In this document: positions 4,222 through 17,306 of the stretch, in pieces
Layout: the number at the start of each line of letters is the position of its first letter
Numbering within the stretch: position 1 is the stretch's first letter
Assembly: GCA_041481445.1 (NCBI GenBank)
Contig: JBGPBV010000141.1
Location: 1-17,334 of the forward strand
Direction: 5' to 3'
DNA length: 17,334 bases
Source: Vicinamibacteria bacterium
GTDB lineage: Bacteria > Acidobacteriota > Vicinamibacteria > Fen-336
Made by a program: the position numbers and the translations under genes
The notes under the pieces: model-generated
Database searches by the model: none
What the model was told of the DNA's origin: nothing
What the model saw: the letters and a program-made list of their open reading frames with translations, nothing else

Positions 4222-4245
4222 AGAGCCGCCGTGGCACGCGGCTCT
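4222..4245. other. Perfect 8-bp inverted repeat (agagccgc-N8-gcggctct) in the helicase/epimerase divergent intergenic region
   Basis: Seen directly in the 231-bp, comparatively AT-richer spacer between the divergent starts at 4138 and 4370. It could be an RNA hairpin in the helicase 5' leader or a dyad operator. Confidence 0.3.
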
Positions 4246-4369: not shown

Positions 4370-5407
4370 ATGAGAACGACATCCCGGCTCGGCCTCTGCC
4401 TCCTCGCCGCGGTCACGGTCGCCGCCGAGACTCCGCCCGCCGCCTACCGGGCGGAGCAGGTCGGCCAGACCGTGCGGCTCACCGACACCGGCCGCGACGT
4501 CGTCGTGTCGATCGCGCCCTCTCGCGGAAACGTCACCTTCCAGATGCGGGTGAAGGGACACGACGTCCTGTACTTTCCGGTCGCGTCGATCGACGACCCG
4601 CGGGCCGGGCAGTTCGGCATCCCGTTCCTCGGCCCCTGGGCGAACCGGCTCGACGAGACCGCCTTCTACGCGGGCGGCCGGCGCTACGCGTTCGACATGG
4701 AGCTGGGCAACGTCAAGGGCGCCGTCCCGATCCACGGCTTCCTCGGGAGCGCCCAGTGGCAGGTGGTCGAGGCCCGCGCGGACGCCGACGCGGCCTGGGT
4801 GACGAGCCGTCTCGAGTTCTTCCGCGGTCCGCTCTGGATGAAGCAGTTCCCCTTCGCGCACACGATCGAGATCACGCACCGGCTGGCCGACGGCGTGCTC
4901 GAGGTACGCACGCGCATCCAGAACCTGAGCCTCGAGCCGATGCCGGTGAGCATCGGGTTCCACCCGTACTTCCAGCTGACGGACTCGCCCCGCAACGACT
5001 GGACGGTCTCGATCGGGGCGCGCCGCCAGTGGCTGCTGGCCGAGAACAAGATCCCCACCGGCGAGACGCAGCCGATCGAGCGCCTGTTCCCGAACCCGCA
5101 GGCGGTGGCGTTGAAGGACTACGACCTCGATCACGTCTTCGGCGACCTCGTCCGCGACGCGCAGGGCCGGGCCGTCATGAGCGTGAAGGGCCGCTCCCAG
5201 CGGCTCGACGTGACGATGGGCGGCAAGTACCGCGCCGCGGTCGTCTACGCGCCCGCCCCGGACCGCGGCTTCATCTGCTTCGAGCCGATGGTGGGCATCA
5301 CGAACGCGATGAACGCCGCCCACAAGGGCCTGTACACGGAGCTGCAGAGCATCCCCGTCGGGGGCACCTGGGAAGAGAGCTTCTGGGTGCGCCCGAGCGG
5401 GTTCTGA
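4370..5407 (+). CDS. Aldose 1-epimerase (galactose mutarotase-like) family protein, secreted
   Basis: GFHPYFQL is the family signature, CFEPMVG carries the catalytic-Glu motif, and [11 protein letters not shown] is also present. The N-terminal Sec signal is [19 protein letters not shown]. The track ORF 2924..5407 is the same frame with a spurious N-terminal extension antisense to the helicase gene. I take the ATG at 4370 as the start. Confidence 0.85.
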
Positions 5408-5420
5408 CGATCTCCGGCCT

Positions 5421-5426
5421 GAGGAG
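5421..5426 (+). promoter_or_regulatory. Shine-Dalgarno (GAGGAG) for the SDR gene
   Basis: The sequence is GAGGAGcagaacaATG, with the start at 5434. Confidence 0.55.
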
Positions 5427-5433
5427 CAGAACA

Positions 5434-6212
<779 letters not shown>

Positions 6213-6213
<1 letters not shown>

Positions 6214-7781
6214 TGTCTCGAGTCACCGTGGGCGCGGCGGCGGCGCTCGGGTTCCTGGTCGGCTGCACACCCCGCCCGCAGGCGGTTGCGGGCTGGCGCA
6301 TGGCCGACCGGACGCTCGACGTCCTGACCGATCGGCCGCCCGGCGAGCCCGACGCGCCCGGGCCCGACGGCTTCGTGGACGACTACGACAACGCGCAGGG
6401 GCGGCTGATCCGCGGCGTCAACGGCAATATCTCGACGAAGTTCCCGGAGGACGGACGGTACGAGGTCGTCCTCGATGCCTGCGCCTCGAGCTGGGCCCAC
6501 GACTTCTCCTGGTCGGTGGACGGCGGGCCACCGCAACCGGCGACGTCGTGCCTGCACACGGTGCGCCTTGCCGAAGGCATGCATCAGGCCGAGCTGATCG
6601 CGCGGAACGCCTCCGGAGACGAGAGCCGGGCCACTCGGACGCTCAGCGTGAGGAACCTCGTGGTGGTCGGCCTGGGCGACTCCTACTCCGCGGGCTCCGG
6701 GAACTCACGCAACGGCCTGGTGTCCATCGACTACGACCAGATCCAGTGCACGCGCACCGGACGCTCGGGCCAGGCGGCGGCCGCCCTCGCGCTGGAGAAG
6801 GCCGACGAGGAGACCTCGGTGACCTTCATCCACCTGGCCTGCGGCGGCGCGCGCGCCACCACCGGCTTCTTGCGCGCCCACAACGGCCAGCCTCCCCAGA
6901 TCCTGGAGCTCGAGCAGATCCTGCCCCCGGGCAAGGCCGTCGACTTCGTCTCCTTCAGCATCGGCGGCAACGACGTGCGCTTCTCGGAGGTGATCGAGCA
7001 GTTGATCAAGGAGCCGGATGCTCCGCTCTCGCTGCTCGACGGCGAGCGCCTGCACGACCGGGTGCAGCGGCAGCTCGGAGAGCTGCGCGAGACCATGGCC
7101 AGCGTGGCCGCCTGTTTCGACTCCGGTTTCGAGGGCCGGCCCTGCGAGGTCACGGGCCCGTCCGGACGGGACGACGACGCCCAGGTGCTGATCATCCCGC
7201 GGATTCCCCTCGTGGCCCAGGATCGCGTGGTCCCGGTGACCTACCCGGATCTCAGCACGCGCTTCGTGAAGGACGGCCAGGGCCGGCCCGTCCTCGACGG
7301 GAGCGGCCAGCCGCGAGTCGAGACCTGCCCGAGCGGCGCCGTCGACGAGCCGGGCGATCTCCTCGACGGAGTGCCCGACGGCCTCATCGACGGGCGGCCG
7401 CTCGGGGATCCTCGTCCTCCGCGGCTCAGCGAATCGGAATGGGCCTGGGGCGGCACGGCCCTGCTCGGGCTCTCCGATCCGGCTCCCGACAACCGTGTCC
7501 CCGGCGTCTACGCCTACACGCCGGAGGCGGGCGGGGCGGCGGTGCCGCTGCCGTTCGTGGACACCTTGAACGCGCTGATCCTGGAATCCCGCGGACGCTT
7601 CGGCTGGAGCGCCTCCGACCGCTGGTTCAGGGACTCACGCGGCCACGGGTATTGCTCGACGCCGGACGACAACTGGTTCCTGCGCTCGATCTTCCACCCG
7701 AACGTCGCCGGCTACGACGGCGAGGCCCAGGGCCTCCTCGCGGAAGCACGGCGACTGGGACTGAAGGTGGACGGACTCTAG
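6213..7781 (+). CDS. SGNH/GDSL-hydrolase family lipoprotein with an N-terminal Ig/PKD-like domain and a large insertion
   Basis: The ATG overlaps the SDR stop (TGATG at 6211-6215). The lipoprotein signal is MSRVTVGAAAALGFLVGC, with lipobox LVGC. VVVGLGDSYSAGSG is SGNH block I, FSIGGNDV is block III, and a C-terminal FHPN is the His block. The SGNH blocks are separated by about 250 aa of extra sequence. Confidence 0.75.
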
Positions 7782-8992
7782 CCGGCGGGCTCCAGCGGCG
7801 TGTGGGAGTCGAGGAACAGCCAGCAGAGCGCGCCCGCCGCGTAGATGAGAGCCGAGATCAGGAACGTGAGCGTCCAGTCCTTCCCGGTCCAGGTCAGCAG
7901 GTATCCGACGACGATCACCGACGACGCTCCCGCCACGCTGCCCAGCGTGTTCATGGCGCCCGACACCGTGCCGGAGTAGCGGCCGCCCACGTCCATGGCG
8001 CCGGCCCAGGCCGCCGGCATCACGAAATCGTTGAAGAAGCCGGCCAGACCCAGGACGAGCATCGCGCGGACGGGATCGGCGACCTTCGTGAACGCGACGA
8101 TCGAGGCGGAGGCGCCGATGAACCCGGTGAGGGCGACCAGGCGGCGCGCGCGGGCCACGCCCGTCCGGCGGGCCAGGCGCGGGATCGCGGCCGCCGAGAC
8201 GAGGCAGCCGGCGCCTCCCATCAGGAGGGGCAGGCCGGCGAGCAGGGCGCCCATCTTCAGGCTCGTGCCGCGCGCCTCGCGCAGGTACGTGGGCAGCCAG
8301 TTGATGTAGAACCACCAGCCGTAGGCCAGGCACATGTACTGGAGCGACAAGAGCCAGACCGCGCGCGACGTGAAGATGCGCCGCCAGGGGACACGGGCGG
8401 CCACCGCCGACTCGCGTGCCGGCGGCAGCAACGCCCGCTCGGCGGCATTCATCCGCGGATGCCGGCTCGGGTCGTCCCGATACCAGCGATGGAAGAAGAG
8501 CGCCCACACCATCCCGATCGCCCCGAACACCTCGAAGGTGCGGCGCCAGGTCAGCCCTCCGATCATCAGGGCGACCAGGGTGGGTGTGAAGGCGCCGCTC
8601 ACGCGCGTGGCCAGCCACACCACGGCCTGCGCCCGCTCGCGCTCGCCCGCGGGCAGCCAGACGGTCAGGATCCGCGTCAGGTTGGGGAAGGCCCCCGCCT
8701 CGCCCGCGCCGAATAGCGCGCGCGTGACGATCAGCGAGCGCGGGCTCCAGGCCCAGCCCGTGAACGCGGTGAAGAACGACCACCAGAGGACGATGCGCAT
8801 CAGCACGCGGCGCGGTCCGATGCGGTCGCCCAGCCACCCGCCCGGGATCTCGAACAGCGCGTAGGCCCAGCCGAAGACGGACAGGGCCCAGCCCATCTGC
8901 ACGAGCGACAGGCCCAGGTCGCGGCGGATGTCGGCCGCGGCCACCGAGATCGCCACGCGGTCCATGTACGTGATCAGGGCCAGCAGCACCAC
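7778..8992 (-). CDS. MFS transporter, anion:cation symporter (ACS) family, DgoT/GudP-like sugar-acid transporter
   Basis: ALITYMDRVAISVAA...GWALSVFGWAYALFEIPGGWLGDRIGPRRVL is nearly collinear with E. coli DgoT TM1-TM2 and the loop motif. The product is hydrophobic throughout, with about 12 TM segments. The start is GTG at 8992, the first canonical start. The N-terminus would be more typical if it began a few codons upstream, where only a CTG is available. Confidence 0.85.
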   Translation of the reverse strand: MVLLALITYMDRVAISVAAADIRRDLGLSLVQMGWALSVFGWAYALFEIPGGWLGDRIGPRRVLMRIVLWWSFFTAFTGWAWSPRSLIVTRALFGAGEAGAFPNLTRILTVWLPAGERERAQAVVWLATRVSGAFTPTLVALMIGGLTWRRTFEVFGAIGMVWALFFHRWYRDDPSRHPRMNAAERALLPPARESAVAARVPWRRIFTSRAVWLLSLQYMCLAYGWWFYINWLPTYLREARGTSLKMGALLAGLPLLMGGAGCLVSAAAIPRLARRTGVARARRLVALTGFIGASASIVAFTKVADPVRAMLVLGLAGFFNDFVMPAAWAGAMDVGGRYSGTVSGAMNTLGSVAGASSVIVVGYLLTWTGKDWTLTFLISALIYAAGALCWLFLDSHTPLEPAG

Positions 8993-9153
8993 GAACGCGA
9001 GGGTGACGTAGCGGGCCCGCGTCGGGGCCGCGGTGTCGGCCGCTGGAATTGCCGCGTCGTCCAGGAGAGCCTCCGGTCAGTGGGCGCGTAACGCTAACAC
9101 GGCGCGGAGCCGCCAGACGCGAGGCTGGCCGTTCGTGGTAGGGTCCCGCGCCA

Positions 9154-9160
9154 AAGGAGA
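9154..9160 (+). promoter_or_regulatory. Shine-Dalgarno (AAGGAGA) for the Gfo/Idh/MocA gene
   Basis: The sequence is ccAAGGAGAagtctgATG, with the start at 9167. Confidence 0.55.
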
Positions 9161-9166
9161 AGTCTG

Positions 9167-10402
9167 ATGACCGACAGGCCCGATCCGTCCGGCCGGCGCC
9201 GGTTCCTCCGCACGTCCCTCGGCGCGACCACGGCCCTCCTGGCCGGCGCGCGCCTGGCCCCCGCCTCCGTTCTGGGCGCGAACGATCGCATTCGCATCGG
9301 CGTGATCGGCACCGGCGGGCGGGCCCGTGGCCTCATGCAGCAGCTCCAGGAGCTGCCCGGCCAGGAGATGGTGGCGGTGTCGGACGTCTACGAGCCGCGC
9401 TTGCTGGAGGCGGCGGACATCACCGCGGGCAAGGCGGCGAAGGTCCCCGACTACCGCCGCATCCTCGACGACAAGGCGGTCGATGCCGTCCTCATCGGCG
9501 CCCCCGACCACTGGCACAAGACGATGACGCTCGAGTCGCTCGCCGCCGGCAAGGACGTCTACGTGGAGAAGCCGGTCTCGCATTCGCTCGAAGAGGGCGA
9601 GGCGATGGTGAAGGCGGTCGAGGCCTCGAAGCAGGTCGTGCAGACGGGGACGCAGCAGCGGAGCTGGGACCACTGGATCCTGGGCAAGCAGATCGTGGAT
9701 TCGGGCAAGCTGGGCCGGGTGACCTTCGTCAACACCTACTGGTATCAACTGGCGAGGGGCGGGCCCCTGCCCGAGGTGGAGACGGCCAAGCTCGACTGGA
9801 AGGGCTGGCTCGGCCCCGCCGCCCTTCAGCCATTCGATGCCGAGCGCTTCCTGCGCTGGCGGCACTTCAAGCCGTTCGGTGGCGGCATGCTGACCGACCT
9901 GCTCACCCACTGGATCGACGTCGTGCACTGGTACATGGGCGTGGAGGCGCCGCTGTCCGCCGCCACCACCGCCCGCAAGTACCGCATGAAGAGCTGGGAC
10001 TGGCCGGACGCGGTGACGGCCACCCTCGAGTATCCCGGCGAGCTCATGGTGACCCACACCGGCAGCTACGGCAGCAGCATCGACGACGGGGGGCTCGAGT
10101 TCCGCGGCGATCTGGCCACGCTCAAGATCGACCGGGAGAGGCTCCTCGTCTTCAACGAGGGCTCCCCGCGGGTGGAAGGGCAGTACACCCCCGAGCCCGA
10201 GATCCAGGTGCGCTCGCAGGGCGACGGCACCACCAGCCACCTGCGCAACTGGCTCGACTGCATCCGCAGCCGGAAGACGCCGACCGCCCCGATGCGCGTG
10301 GGCCACCAGGCGGTGCGCGCCGCCCACATTGCCAACGCCTCCATGGGCCTCGGCGCGGCCGTGCGCTACGACGCCCGCACGGGAAGGATCGAGCGGTCCT
10401 GA
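9167..10402 (+). CDS. Gfo/Idh/MocA-family NAD(P)-dependent oxidoreductase with a twin-arginine (Tat) signal peptide, periplasmic
   Basis: The Tat motif is SGRRRFLRTSLGATTALLAGARLAPAS. IRIGVIGTGGRARG is the N-terminal Rossmann motif, and EKP and AVEASKQ are family motifs. Export and architecture are analogous to Zymomonas glucose-fructose oxidoreductase. Confidence 0.9.
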   Translation: MTDRPDPSGRRRFLRTSLGATTALLAGARLAPASVLGANDRIRIGVIGTGGRARGLMQQLQELPGQEMVAVSDVYEPRLLEAADITAGKAAKVPDYRRILDDKAVDAVLIGAPDHWHKTMTLESLAAGKDVYVEKPVSHSLEEGEAMVKAVEASKQVVQTGTQQRSWDHWILGKQIVDSGKLGRVTFVNTYWYQLARGGPLPEVETAKLDWKGWLGPAALQPFDAERFLRWRHFKPFGGGMLTDLLTHWIDVVHWYMGVEAPLSAATTARKYRMKSWDWPDAVTATLEYPGELMVTHTGSYGSSIDDGGLEFRGDLATLKIDRERLLVFNEGSPRVEGQYTPEPEIQVRSQGDGTTSHLRNWLDCIRSRKTPTAPMRVGHQAVRAAHIANASMGLGAAVRYDARTGRIERS

Positions 10403-10403
10403 C

Positions 10404-11204
10404 TCACTGGTCGCGCGGGGGCGGGGCCGGCACGGCCAGGAGCGCGTCCGCCGGCCGATGGCCGGCCCAGGCGATACCGCGCAGGACGATCTCCCGGGGG
10501 ACCTCCTTGAGGAAGTTCGCGGTGTGGTGTCCCTGCATCCAGACGAAGGACCGATAGGGCTGGCCGCCCGGCAGCGTCCTCTCGTACGACCAGGCCTGCG
10601 GGTTCACCTGGCCATCCTGCGGAAGCGGCGCCTCCACGAGCACGTGCATCCCGGGGGCCTTGCGCAGCAGGAAGAACGCCTCGTCGTCGATCTCGAAGTC
10701 GCCGAGGCCGCGCGTGACCGGATGCTCGCGGTCGACGAAATGCACCTTGACCTGTCCCTGCGACCAGTTCATCTCGCCGTGCTGCTTGGCGGCGCCGGCG
10801 ACCTGGGAGAACCAGCCCGGATCGTCCGAGCACATTCCGTCGTGGAGCACGACCAGCCCGCCGCCGCGCTTGAGGTACGGGTCCAGGGCCGCCCGCTCGG
10901 CCGGGCGGCAGCTGCCGCCGTCCCCCTTGTAGATGATGAGGACGTCCGTCCGGGCCAGCTCGTCCGCGGTGGGGAAGTGGAGCGCGCCGTCCACGGTGAC
11001 GCCGCGTTCGAGCAGGATCTTGCTCCAGTCGGCCAGGAACGCCGGATAGTCGTGCACCCCGTTGCCGACCGGGTTGTGCGTCTTCTCCCCGGCGCGGATG
11101 AACACGCGCAGCGGCCGCGCGGGCTCCTGCGCGCCGAGGCGGGCGGCCAGGGGGACCGCGACCGCGACCGCGGCCAGCAGCACGAGCGTCATCTTCGGTT
11201 CCAT
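10404..11204 (-). CDS. ThuA-like (trehalose-utilisation domain, class-I glutamine-amidotransferase-like fold) protein, secreted
   Basis: LKRGGGLVVLHDG and SYERTLPGGQPYRSFVWMQGHHTANF...IAWAG match ThuA-domain conserved blocks. I chose the ATG at 11204 (MEPKMTLVLLAAVAVAVPLAA, a Sec signal) because GGGAGGA lies 3-4 nt upstream. The longer track ORF starting at 11294 adds a non-signal Arg/Cys-rich extension and overlaps the upstream gene. Confidence 0.75.
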   Translation of the reverse strand: MEPKMTLVLLAAVAVAVPLAARLGAQEPARPLRVFIRAGEKTHNPVGNGVHDYPAFLADWSKILLERGVTVDGALHFPTADELARTDVLIIYKGDGGSCRPAERAALDPYLKRGGGLVVLHDGMCSDDPGWFSQVAGAAKQHGEMNWSQGQVKVHFVDREHPVTRGLGDFEIDDEAFFLLRKAPGMHVLVEAPLPQDGQVNPQAWSYERTLPGGQPYRSFVWMQGHHTANFLKEVPREIVLRGIAWAGHRPADALLAVPAPPPRDQ

Positions 11205-11207
11205 GGA

Positions 11208-11214
11208 TCCTCCC
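11208..11214 (-). promoter_or_regulatory. Shine-Dalgarno (GGGAGGA) for the ThuA-like gene
   Basis: The reverse complement reads GGGAGGAtccATG. Confidence 0.5.
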
Positions 11215-11247
11215 GCGACCTCGTCGCATCCGGCGTTGATGGGAGCC

Positions 11248-13809
11248 TCACCTCGGCAGCGCGCGCAGCTCCTCCGCGCTCCAGGGGCGCGCACGCCGCC
11301 TGGTCAGACCGCGGATCTCCTTGACCGCCTCCGGCTCGACCGCGGAGCCGGTGTTGCCCCACGCCCGGCGCACGTAGGTCAGGACCGATGCGATCTCGTC
11401 GTCGCCGAGCGCGGCCAGGGGCGGCATCAGGCCGATGTCGCCCTCCTTGCCGGCCAGGACGATGCGGACGGGAACGCCCGCCTCGCCGACGAGCAGGGAC
11501 GACCCCACGAGGCTGGGGCCCTGGTGCTCTCGCCCGCGGCCGTCTTCTCCGTGGCAGGAGAGGCAGAGGTTGCCGAAGAGCTTGTGGCCGGCCTCGAACC
11601 GGGCGTTCTCGCTGGCGGTCAGCGGCGGTGCCTCGACGCGCGCCACGGGCTTGCCCGGCCAGTCGAGCCGGGCCGCGACCGCCTTGGCCAGTGCGCCGAT
11701 CTCGCCCGTCTCCGCCGTCATGCTCCGCAGCGACCGGGGTGGGGCGGACAGCCTCACGGCGCGGGGGGGCCCCGTGCGCGCGGCGGGGCCACCGGGCTCG
11801 CCGCGCTCGCCGCCGCCGAGGCCGGCCTCCAGGCCGCGCAACAGCGCCGCGCGCTGCCAGGGCGGCCGATCGGTGGTCCCGGCCTGCTCGAGCAGGCGCG
11901 TCACGGCCGCGGGCGCGCGCGACCGCGCCAGGGCTCCGGCCAGCATGGCGACCCCTTCCGCGGTCTCCGCGTTCCCCTCGCCCTCCAGCAGCCGCCCGAG
12001 AACGTCGGCCTCCATCCCCGCGAGCCCGCTCACGACGGCGTCGACGGTGATCGGATCGCCGCCGTAGCGCCGGAGCATGCCCAGGGCCGGCTCGAGGCGC
12101 ACGGTGCGGGGCAGCTCGCCGATCGAGGCGGCGAGCTGGCGGCGGACGGTCCAATGCGGATCGTCCATCAGGCGGAGCACGGTGGCGGCGAGCGGATGGC
12201 CGGGCTCGGCCAGCCACGTCTCGGACCATCGAATCGCCCATGCGCGCACGTCGGGTGAGGGATCGGAATAGAGCTGCTGGAGGGTCGGCGCGTCGAGCGC
12301 ACCCAGCCCGCCGAGCGTGCCCAGCGCGTGCAGCTTCGTCCGCCACTCCGTCGCCGAGCGCAGGAGGTCCCGCAGCGCCGGCACCACGGCGCGGTCGCCG
12401 CGCTGGACGAGGAGCTGCTGCGCGGTATCCCGCCACCACCCGTTCGGATGGGCCAGGTACGGGACGAGGGAGGCCGAGGTCTCCTTCGACAGCGCCGGCC
12501 GGTGGTCGCGCTGGGTCGTGTCGTGCCGGAGGCGCCAGATGCGTCCACGGTTCGTGGGCTGGACGAGCTTGTTCCGCTTGATGTAGTCCTGCAGGTATTC
12601 GGTCTGGTAGGCGGCGTCCTGCACCACGCCGCGGTACATGTCGACCACGTAGAGGGTGCCGTCGGGGGCGGAGGCCGCGCTCACCGGCCGCACGCGCTCG
12701 TCGCGGGAGGCGAAGATCTCGCCCTTCTTGAAGCCGTTGCGCGCGGTCAGGCGGCCCTGGCCGTCGTCCTCGATCACGAACCAGTGCAACATGTTCGTCG
12801 TGCAGTCGGTGATGAACACGCCGCCCCGCAGCTCGTAGGGCAGGCGATCGCCGCGGTAGACGACGGGGGTGGCCGCGCTCTGCAGGATCCGCGAGGAGCC
12901 GTCCGGCCGGAAGAACTGGTCGCGGTAGCCGCGATTGACGCCGCGCGTGGGCCGCACCGGCCAGACCTCGGCTTCGGAAAGGGAGATGAGCGAGGCGTAG
13001 AGGCCGCGCGTCTGCACGACGCCCGGGTTCCTCATGAAGTAGCGGGCGGGCGTGTAGTCCACGAACAAGGGCGAGCTGTTGACGTTGCGAAAGACGCGCC
13101 CGGCGTCGTCGATGGAGCCGCCCCACTGCCCGCGGTTGAGGGTCGGCATGACCTCGAAGCCGCCGCCGCGCCGGTACCGCAGGTGCCAGTCGTGCTCGGA
13201 GGTGTAGAGCCAGTTGTCGAGTCCCCAGATGAGGCTGTTCGCGTTGTGCTCCGGGTTCCCCTCCCGGCGGCCGAAGGTGTCGCTCACCAGCGTCTTCTCG
13301 TCCATCTTCAGGTCGCCGTTCGTGTCGCGCATCCACCACAGGTACGGCGGCTCGCCCACGAGCACGCCGCCGGCCAGGGTCTTGATCGCGCGCGGCAGGA
13401 CGAGCTTGTCGGCGAAGACGGTCCGGCGGTCCATCGTCCCGTCGTCGTCGAGGTCTTCCAGGACCACCACCCGGCAGATCCCCTCGCGTGAGTCCTTCAT
13501 CCCCTCGCCCGCGGCGAAGGCCGGCATCTCGACCACCCACAGGCGGCCGTCGGCGTCGAAGTCGATCAGGATGGGGTCCTCGACCAGGGGCTCCTTCGCC
13601 ACCAGCTCGACCCGATAGCCGGGGGGGACGACGATCGTCTTCCGGGACTCCTCCGCCGAGAGCTCCGGCGCGCCCTTGTCCTCCGGCACCACGGGGGGCG
13701 GCCAGGGCTGGCGCTCGACCTGGCCGCGACAGCCGAGGGCGGCACCCGTCGCGAGGAGCACCGCCGCCAGGGTGAAGACGGTCGCGAGACGTCCGCTCCT
13801 GGCCTGCAT
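11248..13809 (-). CDS. PVC-type heme-binding CxxCH lipoprotein: N-terminal membrane-bound-dehydrogenase domain, central HEAT repeats, C-terminal cytochrome c domain
   Basis: The lipoprotein signal is MQARSGRLATVFTLAAVLLATGAALGC. The N-terminal block IVVPPGYRVELVAKEPLVEDPILIDFDADGRLWVVEM is typical of the TIGR02604-type dehydrogenase domain of Planctomycetes/Verrucomicrobia/Acidobacteria. HEAT-like repeats span residues ~480-600 (ALRDLLRS..., LYSDPSPDVRAWAIRW..., LRLMDDPHWTVRRQLA...). The C-terminus carries GNLCLSCHGEDG, a CxxCH heme c site. Confidence 0.85.
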   Translation of the reverse strand: MQARSGRLATVFTLAAVLLATGAALGCRGQVERQPWPPPVVPEDKGAPELSAEESRKTIVVPPGYRVELVAKEPLVEDPILIDFDADGRLWVVEMPAFAAGEGMKDSREGICRVVVLEDLDDDGTMDRRTVFADKLVLPRAIKTLAGGVLVGEPPYLWWMRDTNGDLKMDEKTLVSDTFGRREGNPEHNANSLIWGLDNWLYTSEHDWHLRYRRGGGFEVMPTLNRGQWGGSIDDAGRVFRNVNSSPLFVDYTPARYFMRNPGVVQTRGLYASLISLSEAEVWPVRPTRGVNRGYRDQFFRPDGSSRILQSAATPVVYRGDRLPYELRGGVFITDCTTNMLHWFVIEDDGQGRLTARNGFKKGEIFASRDERVRPVSAASAPDGTLYVVDMYRGVVQDAAYQTEYLQDYIKRNKLVQPTNRGRIWRLRHDTTQRDHRPALSKETSASLVPYLAHPNGWWRDTAQQLLVQRGDRAVVPALRDLLRSATEWRTKLHALGTLGGLGALDAPTLQQLYSDPSPDVRAWAIRWSETWLAEPGHPLAATVLRLMDDPHWTVRRQLAASIGELPRTVRLEPALGMLRRYGGDPITVDAVVSGLAGMEADVLGRLLEGEGNAETAEGVAMLAGALARSRAPAAVTRLLEQAGTTDRPPWQRAALLRGLEAGLGGGERGEPGGPAARTGPPRAVRLSAPPRSLRSMTAETGEIGALAKAVAARLDWPGKPVARVEAPPLTASENARFEAGHKLFGNLCLSCHGEDGRGREHQGPSLVGSSLLVGEAGVPVRIVLAGKEGDIGLMPPLAALGDDEIASVLTYVRRAWGNTGSAVEPEAVKEIRGLTRRRARPWSAEELRALPR

Positions 13810-13824
13810 CCCTGGATCTCGAGG

Positions 13825-15309
13825 CTATTCGATCGGATCGAGGCGCACCACGACGCCGGGCGTGGACGACGACAGCTTGACCCCTGGCAGCTGCAGGGCC
13901 ACGTAGAGCAGCCCGTCGGGGCCGGTCACGACGTCACGCACACGGCCGTAGCGGTTGAAGAGCACCTCCTCGTGCGTGGCCTGGCGGCCTTTCACCTCCA
14001 GGCGCCGCAGGGCGGTGCCGCCGAGGCCGGTCACGAACAGGTCGTTGCGCCAGCCCGGATAGCGATTCCCCGAGTAGAAGTGGATCCCGCTGGGCGCGAT
14101 GGTCGGGTTCCAGTACACGATCGGCGGCTCCATGCCCTCGTGCGCCGTCTGCGTGATGCCGGGCTCGAGGCCGTGCGAGATCACGGGCCAGCCGTAGTTG
14201 TGGCCGGGCTCGAGGATGTTGAGCTCGTCGCCGCCCATCGGCCCGTGCTCGGACTCCCACAGGAGGCCGGTCACCGGATCGATCGAGAAGCCCTGGGGAT
14301 TGCGATGGCCGTAGGTCCAGATGGTCGGCACCGCACCGGCGCGGCCCGCGAACGGGTTGTCGGAGGGGACGGTCCCGTCGTCGTTGATGCGGTGCACCTT
14401 TCCCAGCGGGCTTCCGAGGTCCTGGGCGGCCGTTGGCTGCCCCCGGTCTCCGATCGAGTACAGGAGCTTGCCCTGTCGATCGAAGACGAAGCGCGAGCCG
14501 TAGTGGTAGTTGAGGGGACCGAAGAGCGCCGGCGGCGGCCGGTAGAGGGCCTGCTCGTCGACCCACCGGTTGTCCTTGACCCGCCCGCGGACGATCGCGG
14601 TCATCGACGTGTCATCGGGCCCGGCGGCCGCGTACGAGAGATAGATCCAGCCGTTCTCGGCGTAGTTCGGATGCACCTCGACGTCCAGGAGTCCCCCGTC
14701 CTGGACGGTCCAGGGCCTGGGCGTGCCCGCGACCGCCTCCGGCAACAGGCGGCCCTTCTCCACGATCCTCAGCCGGCCCGGCCGCTCGGTGACGAGCATC
14801 CGCCCGTCCGGCAGGAACGCGATCCCCCAGGGCGTCTCCAGGTCGCGCGCCACCACCTCGAGCTTGAAGGCCTGCTTCTCCGACCGGATCACCTGGCCTT
14901 CGGGGTCGACGATCGTCGGCGGATGTTCCCGGGCTTCGGCCGCCTCCTGGCGGATCAACACCACGAGCTGCCAGATCTGCTCCTCCGTGAGCACGTCCTT
15001 GAAGGCGACCATCGCGGTGCCTTTGCGGCCGTCGCGGATGGTCTCGACCACGTGCGCGTCGTCGCCGCCGAACTTCCACTCGTCGTCGACCAGGCTGCTC
15101 GCCGCGCCACCCTCGAGGGACCGGCCGTGGCAGGCCACGCAACGCTGGTCGTACACGGCCCAGGTCTTCACCATCGGATCGCCCGGCCCGCGTCCGGCCC
15201 GCGGGTCGCGGGGTGGGCTCGGCGCGGACGGCGGACCCTGCGCGGGGGGGACGGTGAAGGCGAGCGTGGCCGCGGCGGCCAGGGGCCAGACGGCGGCGGC
15301 GCGAGTCAT
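13825..15309 (-). CDS. Cytochrome c-fused PQQ-dependent soluble sugar (glucose/sorbosone) dehydrogenase, secreted
   Basis: The signal peptide is MTRAAAVWPLAAAATLAFTVPPAQG. The N-terminal domain has CVACHG (CxxCH). The beta-propeller body has sGDH/YliI-family blocks: WGIAFLPDGRMLVTER, GGLLDVEVHPNY, GHRNPQG, LWESEHGPMGGDELN and GHNYGWP. It lies 15 nt upstream of the PVC gene, so they are probably co-transcribed. Confidence 0.9.
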   Translation of the reverse strand: MTRAAAVWPLAAAATLAFTVPPAQGPPSAPSPPRDPRAGRGPGDPMVKTWAVYDQRCVACHGRSLEGGAASSLVDDEWKFGGDDAHVVETIRDGRKGTAMVAFKDVLTEEQIWQLVVLIRQEAAEAREHPPTIVDPEGQVIRSEKQAFKLEVVARDLETPWGIAFLPDGRMLVTERPGRLRIVEKGRLLPEAVAGTPRPWTVQDGGLLDVEVHPNYAENGWIYLSYAAAGPDDTSMTAIVRGRVKDNRWVDEQALYRPPPALFGPLNYHYGSRFVFDRQGKLLYSIGDRGQPTAAQDLGSPLGKVHRINDDGTVPSDNPFAGRAGAVPTIWTYGHRNPQGFSIDPVTGLLWESEHGPMGGDELNILEPGHNYGWPVISHGLEPGITQTAHEGMEPPIVYWNPTIAPSGIHFYSGNRYPGWRNDLFVTGLGGTALRRLEVKGRQATHEEVLFNRYGRVRDVVTGPDGLLYVALQLPGVKLSSSTPGVVVRLDPIE

Positions 15310-15464: not shown

Positions 15465-16046
15465 GTGTTCTCGAAGACATCCGCCGAGGACCTTCGGGCG
15501 GTGCTGGCCGCCTATCGGACGGTCAAGAACGGGTCCTGGCCCCAGCTCCACGCGGCCATGGATCGTCGCGCCTCGCACTGGGCGATGGCGGCGGAGACGG
15601 AGCTGGCCGCCGAGCTCGCGGGCTATCTGAAGGAGGCGGACGTGCCCGACGGCGTCGTGCGCGTGTTCTGGAAGCTCGGACCCAGGTTCATCTTCGCCGG
15701 TTGCAACGAGCGCTTCGCCCACGACGCGGGTGTGCCCGCGGCCGAGCTCATGGGCATGGACGACTTCGACTCGCGGCTGCCCTGGGGCGCGCAGGCCTCC
15801 AAGTACCGCGCGGACGACGCGGAGGTCTTCAAGGCCGCCGCCCCCAAGCTCGACATCGTGGAGCGTCAGAAGTCGGCCTCCGGTGACATCGTCTGGGTCC
15901 GCGTCGGCAAGGCGCCGATCCTGGCCGCCGGCGGCAGCGCTCGGGGCGTCCTGGGCATGTACGACCTCCTCGCCGACAAGGAGGCGAAGAAGATCGTGTT
16001 CACGCGCACGACACAGACGTTCAAGATCCCACCGTCCGGGCGGTAG
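15465..16046 (+). CDS. Small stand-alone PAS-domain protein (~193 aa), no recognisable output domain
   Basis: FAGCNERFAHDAGVPAAELMGMDDFDSRLPWGAQASKYRADDAEVFKAAAPKLDIVERQKSASGDIVWVRVGKAPILAAGGSARGVLGMYDL follows the PAS consensus (N-x-F...G-x-x-x-x-EL-G...D...Y...D...V...G...E...G...W...K-P...G-x-x-GV-G...D). I chose the GTG at 15465 because of the strong SD. The ATG at 15321 in the track would add a non-coding-looking leader overlapping the divergent promoter region. Confidence 0.6.
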   Translation: MFSKTSAEDLRAVLAAYRTVKNGSWPQLHAAMDRRASHWAMAAETELAAELAGYLKEADVPDGVVRVFWKLGPRFIFAGCNERFAHDAGVPAAELMGMDDFDSRLPWGAQASKYRADDAEVFKAAAPKLDIVERQKSASGDIVWVRVGKAPILAAGGSARGVLGMYDLLADKEAKKIVFTRTTQTFKIPPSGR

Positions 16047-16199: not shown

Positions 16200-17306
16200 C
16201 TACAGCAGCTTCACGACACGGTCGGCGAGGCCCTTCTCGCCGAGCACGACCGTCAGGTTGGCCTTCTCCGACACCTTCTCCAGGACCTCGAGCTCACGCA
16301 GGCGCATCAGGGTGGGGCTCGACTCCAGGATCTTGGCCGTGTTGGCCTGCGAGCGCATGGCCGCCGTCTCCTCCCGGCGCGTGATGAGGGCGGCCTCGGC
16401 CGCCTTCTTGGCCTCGGTCACCTTGTTCATGAGGTCCTTCATCTCGCCGGGCAGGATCACGTCACGGATGCCGAGGGCGACGACGTCCACGCCGAAACCG
16501 GCGACGCGCTCCCGCACGATGCCGTCCAGCTCCCGCGCGACCGCGTCCTTGTCGCTCAGCAGCACGTCCAGCTCACGCGTGCCGACCACGCCCCGCAGCG
16601 CGAGCTGCGCCTCGCGGTAGAGGGCCTGACGGTAGTCCTCCACCGTGGTCACGGCCACGAGGGGATCCGCCACCTTGTAGGTCACGACGGCGTTCAGGCG
16701 CAGCGTGACCTTGTCCGCGGTCATGATCTCCTGGCCGGCCACGTCCACGACCTGCTCGCGCAGGTCGACGTCCAGGACGCGGGCCTTGGCCACGCCCTTC
16801 CAGAAGGCGTGCGGTCCGGGAGCGAGCGTGGCCTCGTGACGGCCGTCCTTGAAGAAGAGGCCGGCGTGGCCGGCCTCGACCGTCGTGGCCTCGATCAGCG
16901 GCGCGGCGCCGCGGGCCTGGACGATCGCGGCCAGGTCGGTGTGATCGAAGCGCAGCGTGCGCGCATCGAAGGTCTCCACGCGCACGTCGTGGAAGACGGT
17001 CCAGAGCGCGTACAGGCCGGGCTTGAGCACCGCCTCGACACGGCCGTCGACCCACACCACGGCCCGCTCGTGGTCCTTCAGGTCGACCACGCGCGCCTCG
17101 TCGCCGAGGGCGCCCGACTTCGCGATCACGTCCAGGTCCTTGTGGTCGAGCCAGACGTTGCGGACGGAGACGACGTCGATGCGGGCCTTGAGGAGAGGGT
17201 CCCGAATCCAGTGGCGGCCGGGACCCAGCACGCGCTCGAACTCACGATCGCGGAAGAGCAGCCCGCGCTCGTGCTCACGAACCTTGAGACGACGCAGCAC
17301 CATCAA
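16200..17306 (-). CDS. SPFH/Band-7 domain protein, slipin-like, with an N-terminal beta-rich extension of about 150 aa
   Basis: The start MMVLRRLKVREHERGLLFRDREF is a slipin-type N-terminus. The SPFH core is VVDVAGQEIMTADKVTLRLNAVVTYKVADPLVAVTTVEDYRQALYREAQLALRGVVGTRELDVLLSDKD...EMKDLM. The C-terminal coiled-coil is AKKAAEAALITRREETAAMRSQ. The start is ambiguous: the first TTG is at about 17306 with an ATG immediately after it, and an AGGTGG lies 6-9 nt upstream. Confidence 0.85.
   Translation of the reverse strand: MMVLRRLKVREHERGLLFRDREFERVLGPGRHWIRDPLLKARIDVVSVRNVWLDHKDLDVIAKSGALGDEARVVDLKDHERAVVWVDGRVEAVLKPGLYALWTVFHDVRVETFDARTLRFDHTDLAAIVQARGAAPLIEATTVEAGHAGLFFKDGRHEATLAPGPHAFWKGVAKARVLDVDLREQVVDVAGQEIMTADKVTLRLNAVVTYKVADPLVAVTTVEDYRQALYREAQLALRGVVGTRELDVLLSDKDAVARELDGIVRERVAGFGVDVVALGIRDVILPGEMKDLMNKVTEAKKAAEAALITRREETAAMRSQANTAKILESSPTLMRLRELEVLEKVSEKANLTVVLGEKGLADRVVKLL

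Follow-up and report, generated by a model that had tools for sequence, protein, structure and literature searches.

This locus raises the question of whether a row of neighbouring genes in a Vicinamibacteria genome forms a route by which sugars are oxidised outside the cytoplasm and the resulting acids are taken up. The genes lie between positions 4370 and 15309 of a 17,334-nucleotide stretch of contig JBGPBV010000141.1 (assembly GCA_041481445.1); the whole stretch that was analysed is called the window here. Among them are an aldose 1-epimerase, a pyrroloquinoline quinone (PQQ)-type dehydrogenase of the GSDH family, a short-chain dehydrogenase/reductase (SDR) and an MFS transporter of the ACS type. 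On balance it is probable, if by a modest degree, that this span encodes periplasmic, respiration-linked sugar oxidation joined to the uptake of sugar acids. An initial annotation of the window had arrived at a related idea from five of the genes, omitting three others and the N-terminal cytochrome c of the dehydrogenase.

The GC content of the window is 71%, so mechanical lists of open reading frames (ORFs) are crowded with shadow frames. Frames were picked by GC content at the third codon position (ca. 0.93), which gave twelve genes, and families were assigned with Pfam and NCBIfam; the public record of the contig has gene calls that agree with these twelve. Eight of them, G3 to G10, make up the span. 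They are arranged in four transcription units: G3-G4-G5 on the plus strand, G6 alone on the minus strand, G7 alone on the plus strand, and G10-G9-G8 on the minus strand, with G10 first, G8 last and intergenic gaps of 15 and 43 bp. The five genes first considered belong to three of these four units; G7, G8 and G9 are the genes that were left out. Named close homologues are from Vicinamibacterales, Acidobacteriota.

Gene neighbourhoods were compared in a sample anchored on G10, consisting of five homologue contexts from a contig index and 80 genome loci from a pattern scan, against which all proteins of the window were searched. Individual loci are cited by number (L003 and so on). Counts of partner genes refer to the ca. 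22 loci from Acidobacteriota and Sphingomonas in which the GSDH protein was at least 48% identical to G10.

The dehydrogenase gene, G10 (13825–15309, minus strand), encodes an exported protein in which an N-terminal cytochrome c domain is fused to a GSDH domain (PF07995). The GSDH match is strong (396.7 bits against a cut-off of 25, E = 1.1e-118) and covers positions 1–322 of the 332 in the profile. The nearest structures are 7cdy (8e-77) and Asd/YliI of E. coli, 2g8s (7e-73). The soluble glucose dehydrogenase (sGDH) of Acinetobacter, 1c9u, matches at 1e-33 and only over residues 139–378, and the score against the Acinetobacter-type sGDH model, TIGR03606 (non_repeat_PQQ), is 136.6 bits, below the cut-off of 434.55. 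On these comparisons G10 is classed as an Asd/YliI-type enzyme, distant from the Acinetobacter sGDH. Specificity for the beta-anomer is established for the Acinetobacter type. The annotation of G10 as an exported PQQ dehydrogenase therefore stands, but its description as beta-anomer-type has no basis in the sequence, since the protein is of Asd/YliI type and only distantly related to sGDH.

The segments NYHYGSRFVFD, YGHRNPQG and EHGPMGGDELN of G10 contain the same motifs as 2g8s and 7cdy and are invariant across 12 homologues; from the structures of Asd and sGDH, we take them to supply the catalytic histidine and the binding of PQQ and Ca2+. The haem domain (Cytochrome_CBB3, 7.7e-12, residues 50–117) has a CVACH motif, and C57, C60, H61 and M100 are invariant among the same number of homologues. 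G10 is therefore a quinohaemoprotein, for which PQQ binding and oxidation of aldoses at C1 are predicted. A homologue search returned 8000 scored matches, and the same cytochrome c fusion is present in the top matches listed. The 2026 preprint on six-bladed PQQ enzymes covers the CcPDH-like class, not the Asd type, and was not taken as a guide to lanthanide dependence in G10.

G9 (11248–13809, minus strand) encodes a protein of 853 aa with DUF7133, HEAT_2 and C-terminal Cytochrome_CBB3 domains. It scores 309 bits against DUF7133 and passes TIGR02604, the 'putative membrane-bound dehydrogenase domain' model (201.9 bits, cut-off 122.2). Its cytochrome c domain has a CLSCH motif and the methionine of an LMPP segment, and C749, C752, H753 and M795 are invariant. 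By its domains G9 is a PVC-type haem-binding CxxCH protein, composed of a propeller, HEAT repeats and a class I cytochrome c. An AlphaFold2 model (pLDDT 79) contains a six-bladed propeller at residues ca. 50–430, a confident HEAT solenoid at 445–668 and the cytochrome c domain. Among known structures, the modelled propeller is most like those of PQQ sugar dehydrogenases (3a9g and 6jt5). In a full-length profile comparison of G9 with G10, the cytochrome c domains alone aligned, and the propellers gave no global hhalign match. A permissive local comparison restricted to the propeller and the GSDH domain gave a weak but collinear alignment (E = 4.8e-4) in which the RNP and PDGxLYV motifs coincide. 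G9 thus carries a second, distant GSDH-like propeller, a likeness that does not imply catalytic competence. The homologue search for G9 returned 7121 matches; we know of no characterised member of the TIGR02604/DUF7133 family.

The last gene of the operon, G8 (10404–11204, minus strand), encodes an exported ThuA-like protein (PF06283, 96.9 bits), and a signal peptide is present in G8 and in all of its orthologues. Orthologues of G9 (48–80% identity) were found in 11 loci and those of G8 (42–82% identity) in 9, with EF-hand-ThuA variants in 4 more. The order G10-G9-G8 is kept as an operon in seven loci (L003, L004, L008, L010, L012, L016 and L022). In addition, two natural fusions join the products: P0149 (1376 aa) combines cytochrome c-GSDH with DUF7133-HEAT-cytochrome c, and P0140 (1083 aa) combines DUF7133-HEAT-cytochrome c with ThuA. 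Both were considered as possible artefacts of gene calling, which was ruled out – they are in frame, collinear and without internal signal peptides. As Rosetta-stone evidence, the fusions point to joint action of the three operon products, and with the kept operon they show G10, G9 and G8 behaving, in genomic terms, as one unit. The tightest partners of the dehydrogenase are thus G9 and G8, neither of which figured in the initial annotation. A literature search for the combination of ThuA, DUF7133, HEAT and cytochrome domains found nothing relevant.

Three further genes of the span recur with this unit. Orthologues of the transporter, G6 (66–75% identity), are present in L005, L007, L011, L012 and L015, in fragmented form in L016, and at 42% identity in Sphingomonas tabacisoli (L013). 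Orthologues of the SDR, G4 (60–91%), are present in L003, L005, L008, L015 and L016, and at 48% in L013; an SDR gene identified by Pfam match only lies beside the MFS gene in L087 and L090. Orthologues of the epimerase, G3 (53–78%), are present in L003, L004, L014, L021 and L030, and the copy in L014 is directly downstream of GSDH. The same position, directly after GSDH, is taken in L013 by an exported GalM-type epimerase. The partners are arranged in at least five different gene orders, so their association is not merely inherited synteny. Look-ups in the other direction, anchored on the MFS transporter, recovered the dehydrogenase system for 4 of 4 homologues, which were selected for long contigs only. 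In L089, genes for Gluconate_2-dh3, a GMC oxidoreductase, GSDH, DUF7133 and MFS follow one another, all on the same strand, and only 12 bp separate the DUF7133 and MFS genes. No MFS, SDR or epimerase orthologues were found beside GSDH homologues of less than 48% identity outside Acidobacteriota and Sphingomonas. Within the set compared, these patterns show that G3, G6 and G4 are evolutionarily linked to the G10-G9-G8 unit, with a recurrence that exceeds chance.

A fuller form of the cluster is found in a cultured alphaproteobacterium, Sphingomonas tabacisoli CGMCC 1.16275 (L013; NZ_JBHUDY010000001.1, 915824–937185). There, MFS, SDR and ThuA genes are followed by two eight-bladed PQQ dehydrogenases, the cytochrome c-GSDH, the GalM-type epimerase and MBL hydrolases. 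The cluster continues with an LRA6-like FAH-family gene, a GntR regulator, an IlvD/Edd dehydratase and a large unannotated gene of 1031 aa.

G6 (7778–8992, possibly to 9064, minus strand) matches MFS_1 at 1.4e-54. Its best NCBIfam model is TIGR00893, at 242 bits under a cut-off of 395, and the next model scores 149; NarK scores 28 bits and models of aromatic-acid transporters 69–79 bits. The best structural match is DgoT (6e9n, 1e-40). Relatives at 73–90% identity carry the JGI name 'ACS family glucarate transporter'. Among carriers of E. coli K-12, identity is highest to LgoT and DgoT (30%), followed by GarP and GudP (28–29%), ExuT and RhmT (24–25%) and GlpT (22%). In a neighbour-joining tree, whose references were without phthalate, tartrate or allantoate transporters, the G6 clade is sister to LgoT/DgoT/GarP/GudP. 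The equivalents of D46, R47 and E133 of DgoT are kept in G6 and in its acidobacterial orthologues in L005 and L007, and in the Sphingomonas orthologue Gln takes the place of D46. In DgoT, D46 and E133 serve proton coupling and R47 binds the carboxylate. G6 is accordingly placed in a distinct ACS clade and is predicted to be an organic-anion:H+ symporter, DgoT- or GudP-like. Its earlier description as a DgoT-like ACS-family transporter held up when it was placed among ACS members, where it grouped with carriers of aldonates and aldarates.

The start of G6 is unusual. No ATG, GTG or TTG occurs on the minus strand between the in-frame stop at 9079–9077 and the GTG at 8992, from which the protein is called at 404 aa; its orthologues are all 416–444 aa. 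The 28 residues upstream of the GTG align with the first transmembrane helix of DgoT and with the N-termini of the orthologues, and adding them improves the match to 6e9n to 2e-45, aligning from residue 20 of DgoT. Because this helix reaches upstream of the GTG, translation may start at CTG 9064 or ATT 9049.

G3 (4370–5407, plus strand) has a Sec signal peptide and matches Aldose_epim (PF01263) with 91.7 bits (cut-off 27, E = 7e-26), as expected from the earlier call of a secreted aldose 1-epimerase. Its relatives of known structure are 3os7 and 4bzf, and alignment with 3os7 shows that G3 has the catalytic motifs IHGF, GFHPYF and CFEP. The score against the GalM-type equivalog NF011719 is 45 bits, below its 251. 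These features assign G3 to the exported mutarotases of a YoxA/3OS7-like subgroup.

G4 (5434–6213, plus strand) is a classical SDR, cytoplasmic as previously proposed, with a YASAK motif and no signal peptide (adh_short_C2, 1.6e-67). Its best NCBIfam models are PRK06124 (246 bits, cut-off 303), PRK08213 for gluconate 5-dehydrogenase (242, cut-off 279) and TIGR01832 for KduD (233, cut-off 339). The top structural matches (1vl8, 5u9p and 4ibo) are all labelled gluconate 5-dehydrogenase. A sugar-acid-type SDR, like Gno or KduD, is slightly better favoured by these scores, with the substrate class approximate. The resemblance to gluconate 5-dehydrogenase and KduD is confirmed at the level of best models; the assignment itself is not.

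The third gene of this unit, G5 (6213–7781, plus strand), encodes an SGNH/GDSL lipoprotein with an LVGC lipobox. Its start overlaps the stop of G4 by 1 nt, and the two are translationally coupled. The match to Lipase_GDSL_2 is weak (38.3 bits, cut-off 32.9). GDSYS and GGND blocks align with 5mal, a Streptomyces rimosus lipase that is its sole and marginal PDB match; an FHPN segment lies near the C-terminus, and the Asp of a DxxH motif is not evident. No orthologue of G5 was found in the ca. 85 related loci searched with it, and comparison with Pfam, NCBIfam and PDB gave no similarity to lactonase families. The lipoprotein predicted earlier is therefore present, but G5 is best described from these comparisons as a genome-specific accessory esterase, outside the core of the system, and not as the enzyme that opens a sugar lactone. 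The lactonase candidates that do recur are MBL-fold or Amidohydro_2 proteins: exported MBL-fold hydrolases are encoded directly after GSDH in L008, L013 and L021, and adjoin the MFS gene in L087 and L090.

Recurrent families around the system were identified by calling and clustering ORFs in 21 loci and then annotating the clusters. IlvD/Edd dehydratases of sugar-acid subfamilies are present in L006, L008, L011, L012 and L013. One of these reaches 871 bits with the L-arabinonate dehydratase equivalog, whose cut-off is 882, and 460 bits with housekeeping IlvD. A housekeeping role was ruled out for this family: the TIGR00110 scores are 460 and 337 against a cut-off of 618, and models of aldonate-dehydratase subfamilies are passed. 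FAH-family hydrolases nearest to 2,4-didehydro-3-deoxy-L-rhamnonate hydrolase (LRA6-like, 412–415 bits) are present in four loci, and FAH genes are also found in L087, L088 and L090. Other recurrent families are a second FAH family, Amidohydro_2, GntR/FCD regulators and GlcD/GlcF-like pairs. The cytoplasmic keto-acid pathway that the initial annotation had anticipated is thus represented in the neighbourhoods of relatives, by the dehydratases, LRA6-like hydrolases and GntR/FCD regulators.

The Route III non-phosphorylative pathway is composed of a dehydratase, an SDR and an FAH protein and yields glycolate or lactate (Watanabe et al., PMC6336799). The dehydratase, SDR and LRA6-like hydrolase of the relatives match this set; in the window, only the SDR is a candidate member. 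At residues ca. 40–47, after the second beta-strand, G4 has Ala-Gly-Arg-Thr-Arg and no acidic residue. In classical SDRs, non-acidic residues at this place usually mean a preference for NADP(H). If G4 has that preference, a keto-acid reductase fits better than the NAD+-dependent 4-dehydrogenases of Route III.

Genes for aromatic compounds also occur around these clusters. Protocatechuate/beta-ketoadipate genes (Dioxygenase_C, Lyase_1 and Abhydrolase+CMD) flank the cluster in L087 (13652–18840) and L090 (13757–19047), and tannase and PF00756 esterase genes lie near GSDH in L009, L010, L014, L016 and L018. A connection with plant phenolic esters is one possible reading of these genes, and coincidence is the other.

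In the mechanism proposed for the span, G3 would bring the anomers of a free periplasmic aldose to equilibrium and G10 would oxidise C1 to give an aldonolactone. Electrons would pass to the haem domain of G10 itself, possibly then to the haem of G9, and on to the aerobic respiratory chain. The lactone would open spontaneously or by the action of an accessory hydrolase. G6 would import the aldonate, or a keto-aldonate if the acid is further oxidised by the exported G7 (described below) or by G9. In the cytoplasm, G4 would oxidise or reduce the imported acid. Its activity would be either that of a 2-keto-3-deoxy-aldonate 4-dehydrogenase, in keeping with the Route III set near the system in relatives, or that of a reductase of keto-aldonates resembling Gno of Gluconobacter. 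The other cytoplasmic steps would be encoded elsewhere in the genome. PQQ is probably scavenged, because PqqU-type PQQ scavenging has been reported in Vicinamibacteria that have no PQQ biosynthesis genes (PMC12124388).

A number of observations weigh against this reading. When the three promoter regions were searched for a common operator motif, no candidate exceeded the shuffled controls. No aldonate dehydratase, 2-keto-3-deoxygluconate (KDG) kinase or aldolase, FAH protein or regulator was found in the window or in the 8 kb past the end of G12, the last gene of the window; this flank was read on JBGQKR010000017.1 (GCA_041499675.1), in which the window is 4331–21664. The general scheme of oxidation outside and import of the acid, as first proposed, is partly borne out by gene linkage in relatives, but without its SGNH step, and the dehydratase and KDG aldolase that it led one to expect nearby did not appear. 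The nearest relative, L003 (GSDH 84% identical), is without the MFS, SGNH and Gfo genes. The replacement of this block in L003 means that the periphery of the system is modular, and that uptake may be encoded elsewhere or be unnecessary. Without a canonical start codon at the orthologous position, G6 may be N-terminally damaged or impaired in this genome. G4 is under every equivalog cut-off, and FabG models score 218–219 bits, only ca. 25 bits under the best sugar-acid SDR models, so a grouping with fatty-acid reductases is disfavoured by a narrow difference. The catalytic histidine of GSDH has no clean counterpart in the alignment of G9. Many of the compared loci are from related metagenome-assembled genomes, so the counts are not of independent events. 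We know of no physiological role assigned to Asd/YliI enzymes.

The strongest alternative is based on G7 (9167–10402, plus strand), which encodes a Gfo/Idh/MocA oxidoreductase (N- and C-terminal GFO_IDH_MocA domains) with a twin-arginine translocation (TAT) signal, SGRRRFLR. Under this alternative the span serves a periplasmic 3-keto-glycoside route. G7 would oxidise glycosides or disaccharides at C3, together with G8 and possibly G9, with electrons passing to c-type haems; a DUF1080 or xylose-isomerase-like enzyme encoded elsewhere would cleave the bond; G10 and G3 would process the freed reducing sugar or 3-keto sugar; G6 would import the keto-acid; and G4 would reduce the keto group. There are precedents: ThuA and the Gfo-family protein ThuB make 3-keto-disaccharides in rhizobia, and BT2158 is a TAT-exported Gfo glycoside 3-dehydrogenase (PMC8121099). 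According to the same source, DUF1080, TAT-Gfo, a GMC pair, ThuA and a TIM barrel are the hallmark set of 3-keto-glycoside pathways. The best named relatives of G7 are 3-dehydrogenases of glycosides, C-glycosides and levoglucosan: the best NCBIfam model is the BT_2158 glycoside 3-dehydrogenase, NF058561, and the weak PDB relatives are 8tdf/8tdh, DgpA, and inositol and levoglucosan dehydrogenases. A search for literature on entries 8TDF/8TDH found nothing relevant.

Much of the hallmark set is present in the related loci. An exported DUF1080 protein (3keto-disac_hyd) is encoded upstream of the MFS gene in L007, L011, L015, L087, L088 and L090, with a gap of 6 bp in L087 and L090 (the genes are at 9178–11278 in L087, 9189–11281 in L090 and 9045–11272 in L088). 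In L004 a DUF1080 gene adjoins GSDH, and in L008 one comes after DUF7133. Why such a 3-keto-sugar enzyme of the periplasm should be encoded next to an anion transporter is unexplained. An AP_endonuc_2 gene, for a xylose-isomerase-like TIM barrel, is located after ThuA in L016 and also occurs close by in L005. TAT-Gfo paralogues of G7 adjoin GSDH in L004, L007 and L008, and a Gfo gene precedes GSDH in L087. In L003 (14840–19017), a GMC oxidoreductase and Gluconate_2-dh3 pair, LacAC-like, comes after the epimerase and SDR genes and replaces the SGNH-MFS-Gfo block; the same pair precedes GSDH in L089. It seems that a slot for a second periplasmic sugar dehydrogenase is filled by differing enzyme classes, Gfo or GMC. 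The recurrence of TAT-Gfo, the GMC pair and DUF1080 points to additional 3-keto-glycoside chemistry around the system.

As an account of the span itself, the 3-keto-glycoside route is nonetheless rather unlikely. G7 scores 113 bits against NF058561, for which the cut-off is 750, and the match covers the N-terminal 286 of 487 positions. Its paralogues in relatives are only 27–33% identical, with no closer orthologues. G7 is convergent with the adjacent G8 and not co-transcribed with it. The window contains neither DUF1080 nor AP_endonuc_2. Neither an anion transporter nor a C1-oxidising Asd-type enzyme is known from a characterised pathway of this kind, and a mutarotase would be of use only if the substrate were a free reducing sugar.

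A less likely idea, and a speculative one, draws elements of both accounts together. Here G10, G9 and G8 would form a periplasmic multi-enzyme complex that, with TAT-Gfo or with GMC and DUF1080, carries out respiratory oxidative cleavage of di- or oligosaccharides. The reducing end would be oxidised at C1 to an aldobionic acid and the glycosyl residue at C3, followed by elimination or hydrolysis; a dedicated ACS transporter would take in the freed aldonate, and the two c-type haems would carry all electrons to oxygen. If true, this would be a way of breaking down glycans that has not been described before and is common across soil Acidobacteriota, and it would give a first physiological role to Asd/YliI-type enzymes, DUF7133 proteins and exported ThuA proteins.

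Similarly improbable is the proposal that only the G10-G9-G8 operon is a functional unit, a respiratory periplasmic dehydrogenase with possibly a non-sugar substrate, and that the other genes are mere neighbours. In a variant, the system would serve plant phenolic esters, with the MFS protein importing an aromatic or aliphatic acid. The division into four transcription units with no common operator motif is consistent with this, as are the block between ThuA and SDR, which differs even in the closest relative, the GSDH homologues of less than 48% identity that lack the partners, and the tannase, PF00756 and protocatechuate-pathway genes mentioned above. The neighbourhoods speak against it – the GSDH- and MFS-anchored searches are reciprocal across at least five gene orders, the MFS gene is within the operon in L089, and in L014 and L013 the gene immediately downstream of GSDH encodes an epimerase. 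So does the recurrence of LRA6-like hydrolases and of dehydratases for sugar acids, and the MFS protein groups with sugar-acid carriers, at 69–79 bits against the aromatic-acid models.

The least likely account is the exact version first put forward, in which mutarotase supplies a beta-anomer, an sGDH-like enzyme forms the lactone, the SGNH protein opens it, the MFS protein imports the aldonate and a Gno/KduD-type SDR feeds a KDG pathway: all five families are present, the top models and structures for the SDR carry the fitting labels and G5 is coupled to G4, but the SGNH protein is lipase-like and has no orthologue in related loci where MBL-fold and Amidohydro_2 proteins recur, anomer specificity is not known for the Asd type, the SDR is below all equivalog cut-offs with no KDG kinase or aldolase nearby, and three conserved genes of the span are ignored.

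The remainder of the window contains features with no evident part in the system. The intergenic region between the divergent genes G2, for a DEAD-box helicase, and G3 contains a perfect 8-bp inverted repeat, AGAGCCGC-N8-GCGGCTCT, at 4222–4245, which could be an operator or a hairpin in the 5' untranslated region. At 273–2771 on the minus strand, a gene encodes an 832-aa duplicated MacB_PCD/FtsX permease with no ATPase gene adjoining it, which we take to be of the 'ADOP' type that is expanded in Acidobacteria. Paralogues of this permease (ca. 31% identical) lie near GSDH homologues in L003, L006, L026 and L065, which the great abundance of the family probably explains. G11 (15465–16046, plus strand), divergent from the G10 operon, is an orphan of 193 aa with only a sub-threshold match to PAS_4; it could be a sensor or regulator, and no orthologues were found in the related loci. 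G12 (16200–17303, minus strand) encodes an SPFH/Band-7 protein with an N-terminal extension of ca. 140 residues. Rfam and tRNA scans were empty.

Asd/YliI-type, DUF7133 and ThuA-like proteins are abundant in soil Acidobacteriota, Verrucomicrobiota and Planctomycetota and, to our knowledge, have no established physiological role. The neighbourhood described here gives these three families a physiological context that can be tested, and the cultured Sphingomonas tabacisoli strain makes the system accessible to experiment. Organisms that carry it may oxidise free sugars extracellularly with energy conservation through cytochrome c, making their surroundings more acid and taking up the acids. This bears on carbon turnover in soil, on the solubilisation of minerals and phosphate, and on dependence on PQQ as a shared resource.

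Periplasmic oxidation of aldoses with import of gluconate or ketogluconate is known from Pseudomonas and Gluconobacter, and Acinetobacter calcoaceticus has an exported mutarotase beside its periplasmic PQQ glucose dehydrogenases. The proposed system resembles these (Gcd-Gad-KguT/GntT of Pseudomonas, its counterparts in Gluconobacter, and sGDH/mGDH of Acinetobacter) in placing a PQQ-dependent C1 oxidation outside the cytoplasm and passing electrons to the respiratory chain. As in Pseudomonas and Gluconobacter, a secondary carrier would bring in the acid, which a cytoplasmic SDR-type oxidoreductase for (keto)aldonates would then process. Gcd is membrane-bound, eight-bladed and ubiquinone-reducing, whereas G10 is predicted to be a soluble, six-bladed Asd/YliI-type protein with a cytochrome c. 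The DUF7133-HEAT-cytochrome c and ThuA proteins, the carrier from its own ACS clade and the occurrence in Acidobacteriota (Vicinamibacterales), a phylum that has been little studied, also set the system apart from those of Pseudomonas, Gluconobacter and Acinetobacter. Like Asd/YliI of E. coli (2g8s), the Pyrobaculum enzyme (3a9g) and 7cdy, which are exported and soluble, G10 has a catalytic domain with the HxGxR, RNPQG and EHGPxGGDE motifs, and this domain aligns with 2g8s and 7cdy along its whole length. The enzymes of E. coli and Pyrobaculum stand alone and their physiological partners are not known, whereas G10 is fused to cytochrome c and has a conserved genomic context.

In common with Route III (PMC6336799), relatives of the cluster have a COG0129 dehydratase, an SDR and an LRA6-like FAH protein, and their GlcD/F-like genes could oxidise the glycolate or lactate produced. 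Route III begins with ABC import of the sugar and a cytoplasmic, NAD(P)-dependent aldose 1-dehydrogenase, whereas here the first step is proposed to be periplasmic and to use PQQ and haem, with import of the acid; the window itself also lacks the dehydratase and the hydrolase. The likeness to rhizobial ThuAB, Caulobacter LacABC and Bacteroides BT2156-BT2159 is that ThuA adjoins Gfo, that Gfo has a TAT signal as in BT2158, and that DUF1080, xylose-isomerase-like and GMC plus small-subunit genes are found in related loci. Unlike those systems, the window has no ABC sugar importer and no DUF1080, and G7 is outside the BT_2158 family by score. The ThuA protein is exported, and its gene shares a transcription unit with haemoprotein genes, whereas rhizobial ThuA is encoded with ThuB and thuEFGK.

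G9 shares its layout of propeller, HEAT repeats and cytochrome c with the PVC-type CxxCH proteins of Planctomycetes, Verrucomicrobia and Acidobacteria. What is added to the TIGR02604/DUF7133 family is a propeller that is GSDH-like in structure, in a gene that is in an operon, and sometimes fused, with cytochrome c-GSDH and ThuA. In sum, the general strategy of oxidising sugars outside and importing the acid is already known; the three-protein implementation and the distinct ACS clade are new.

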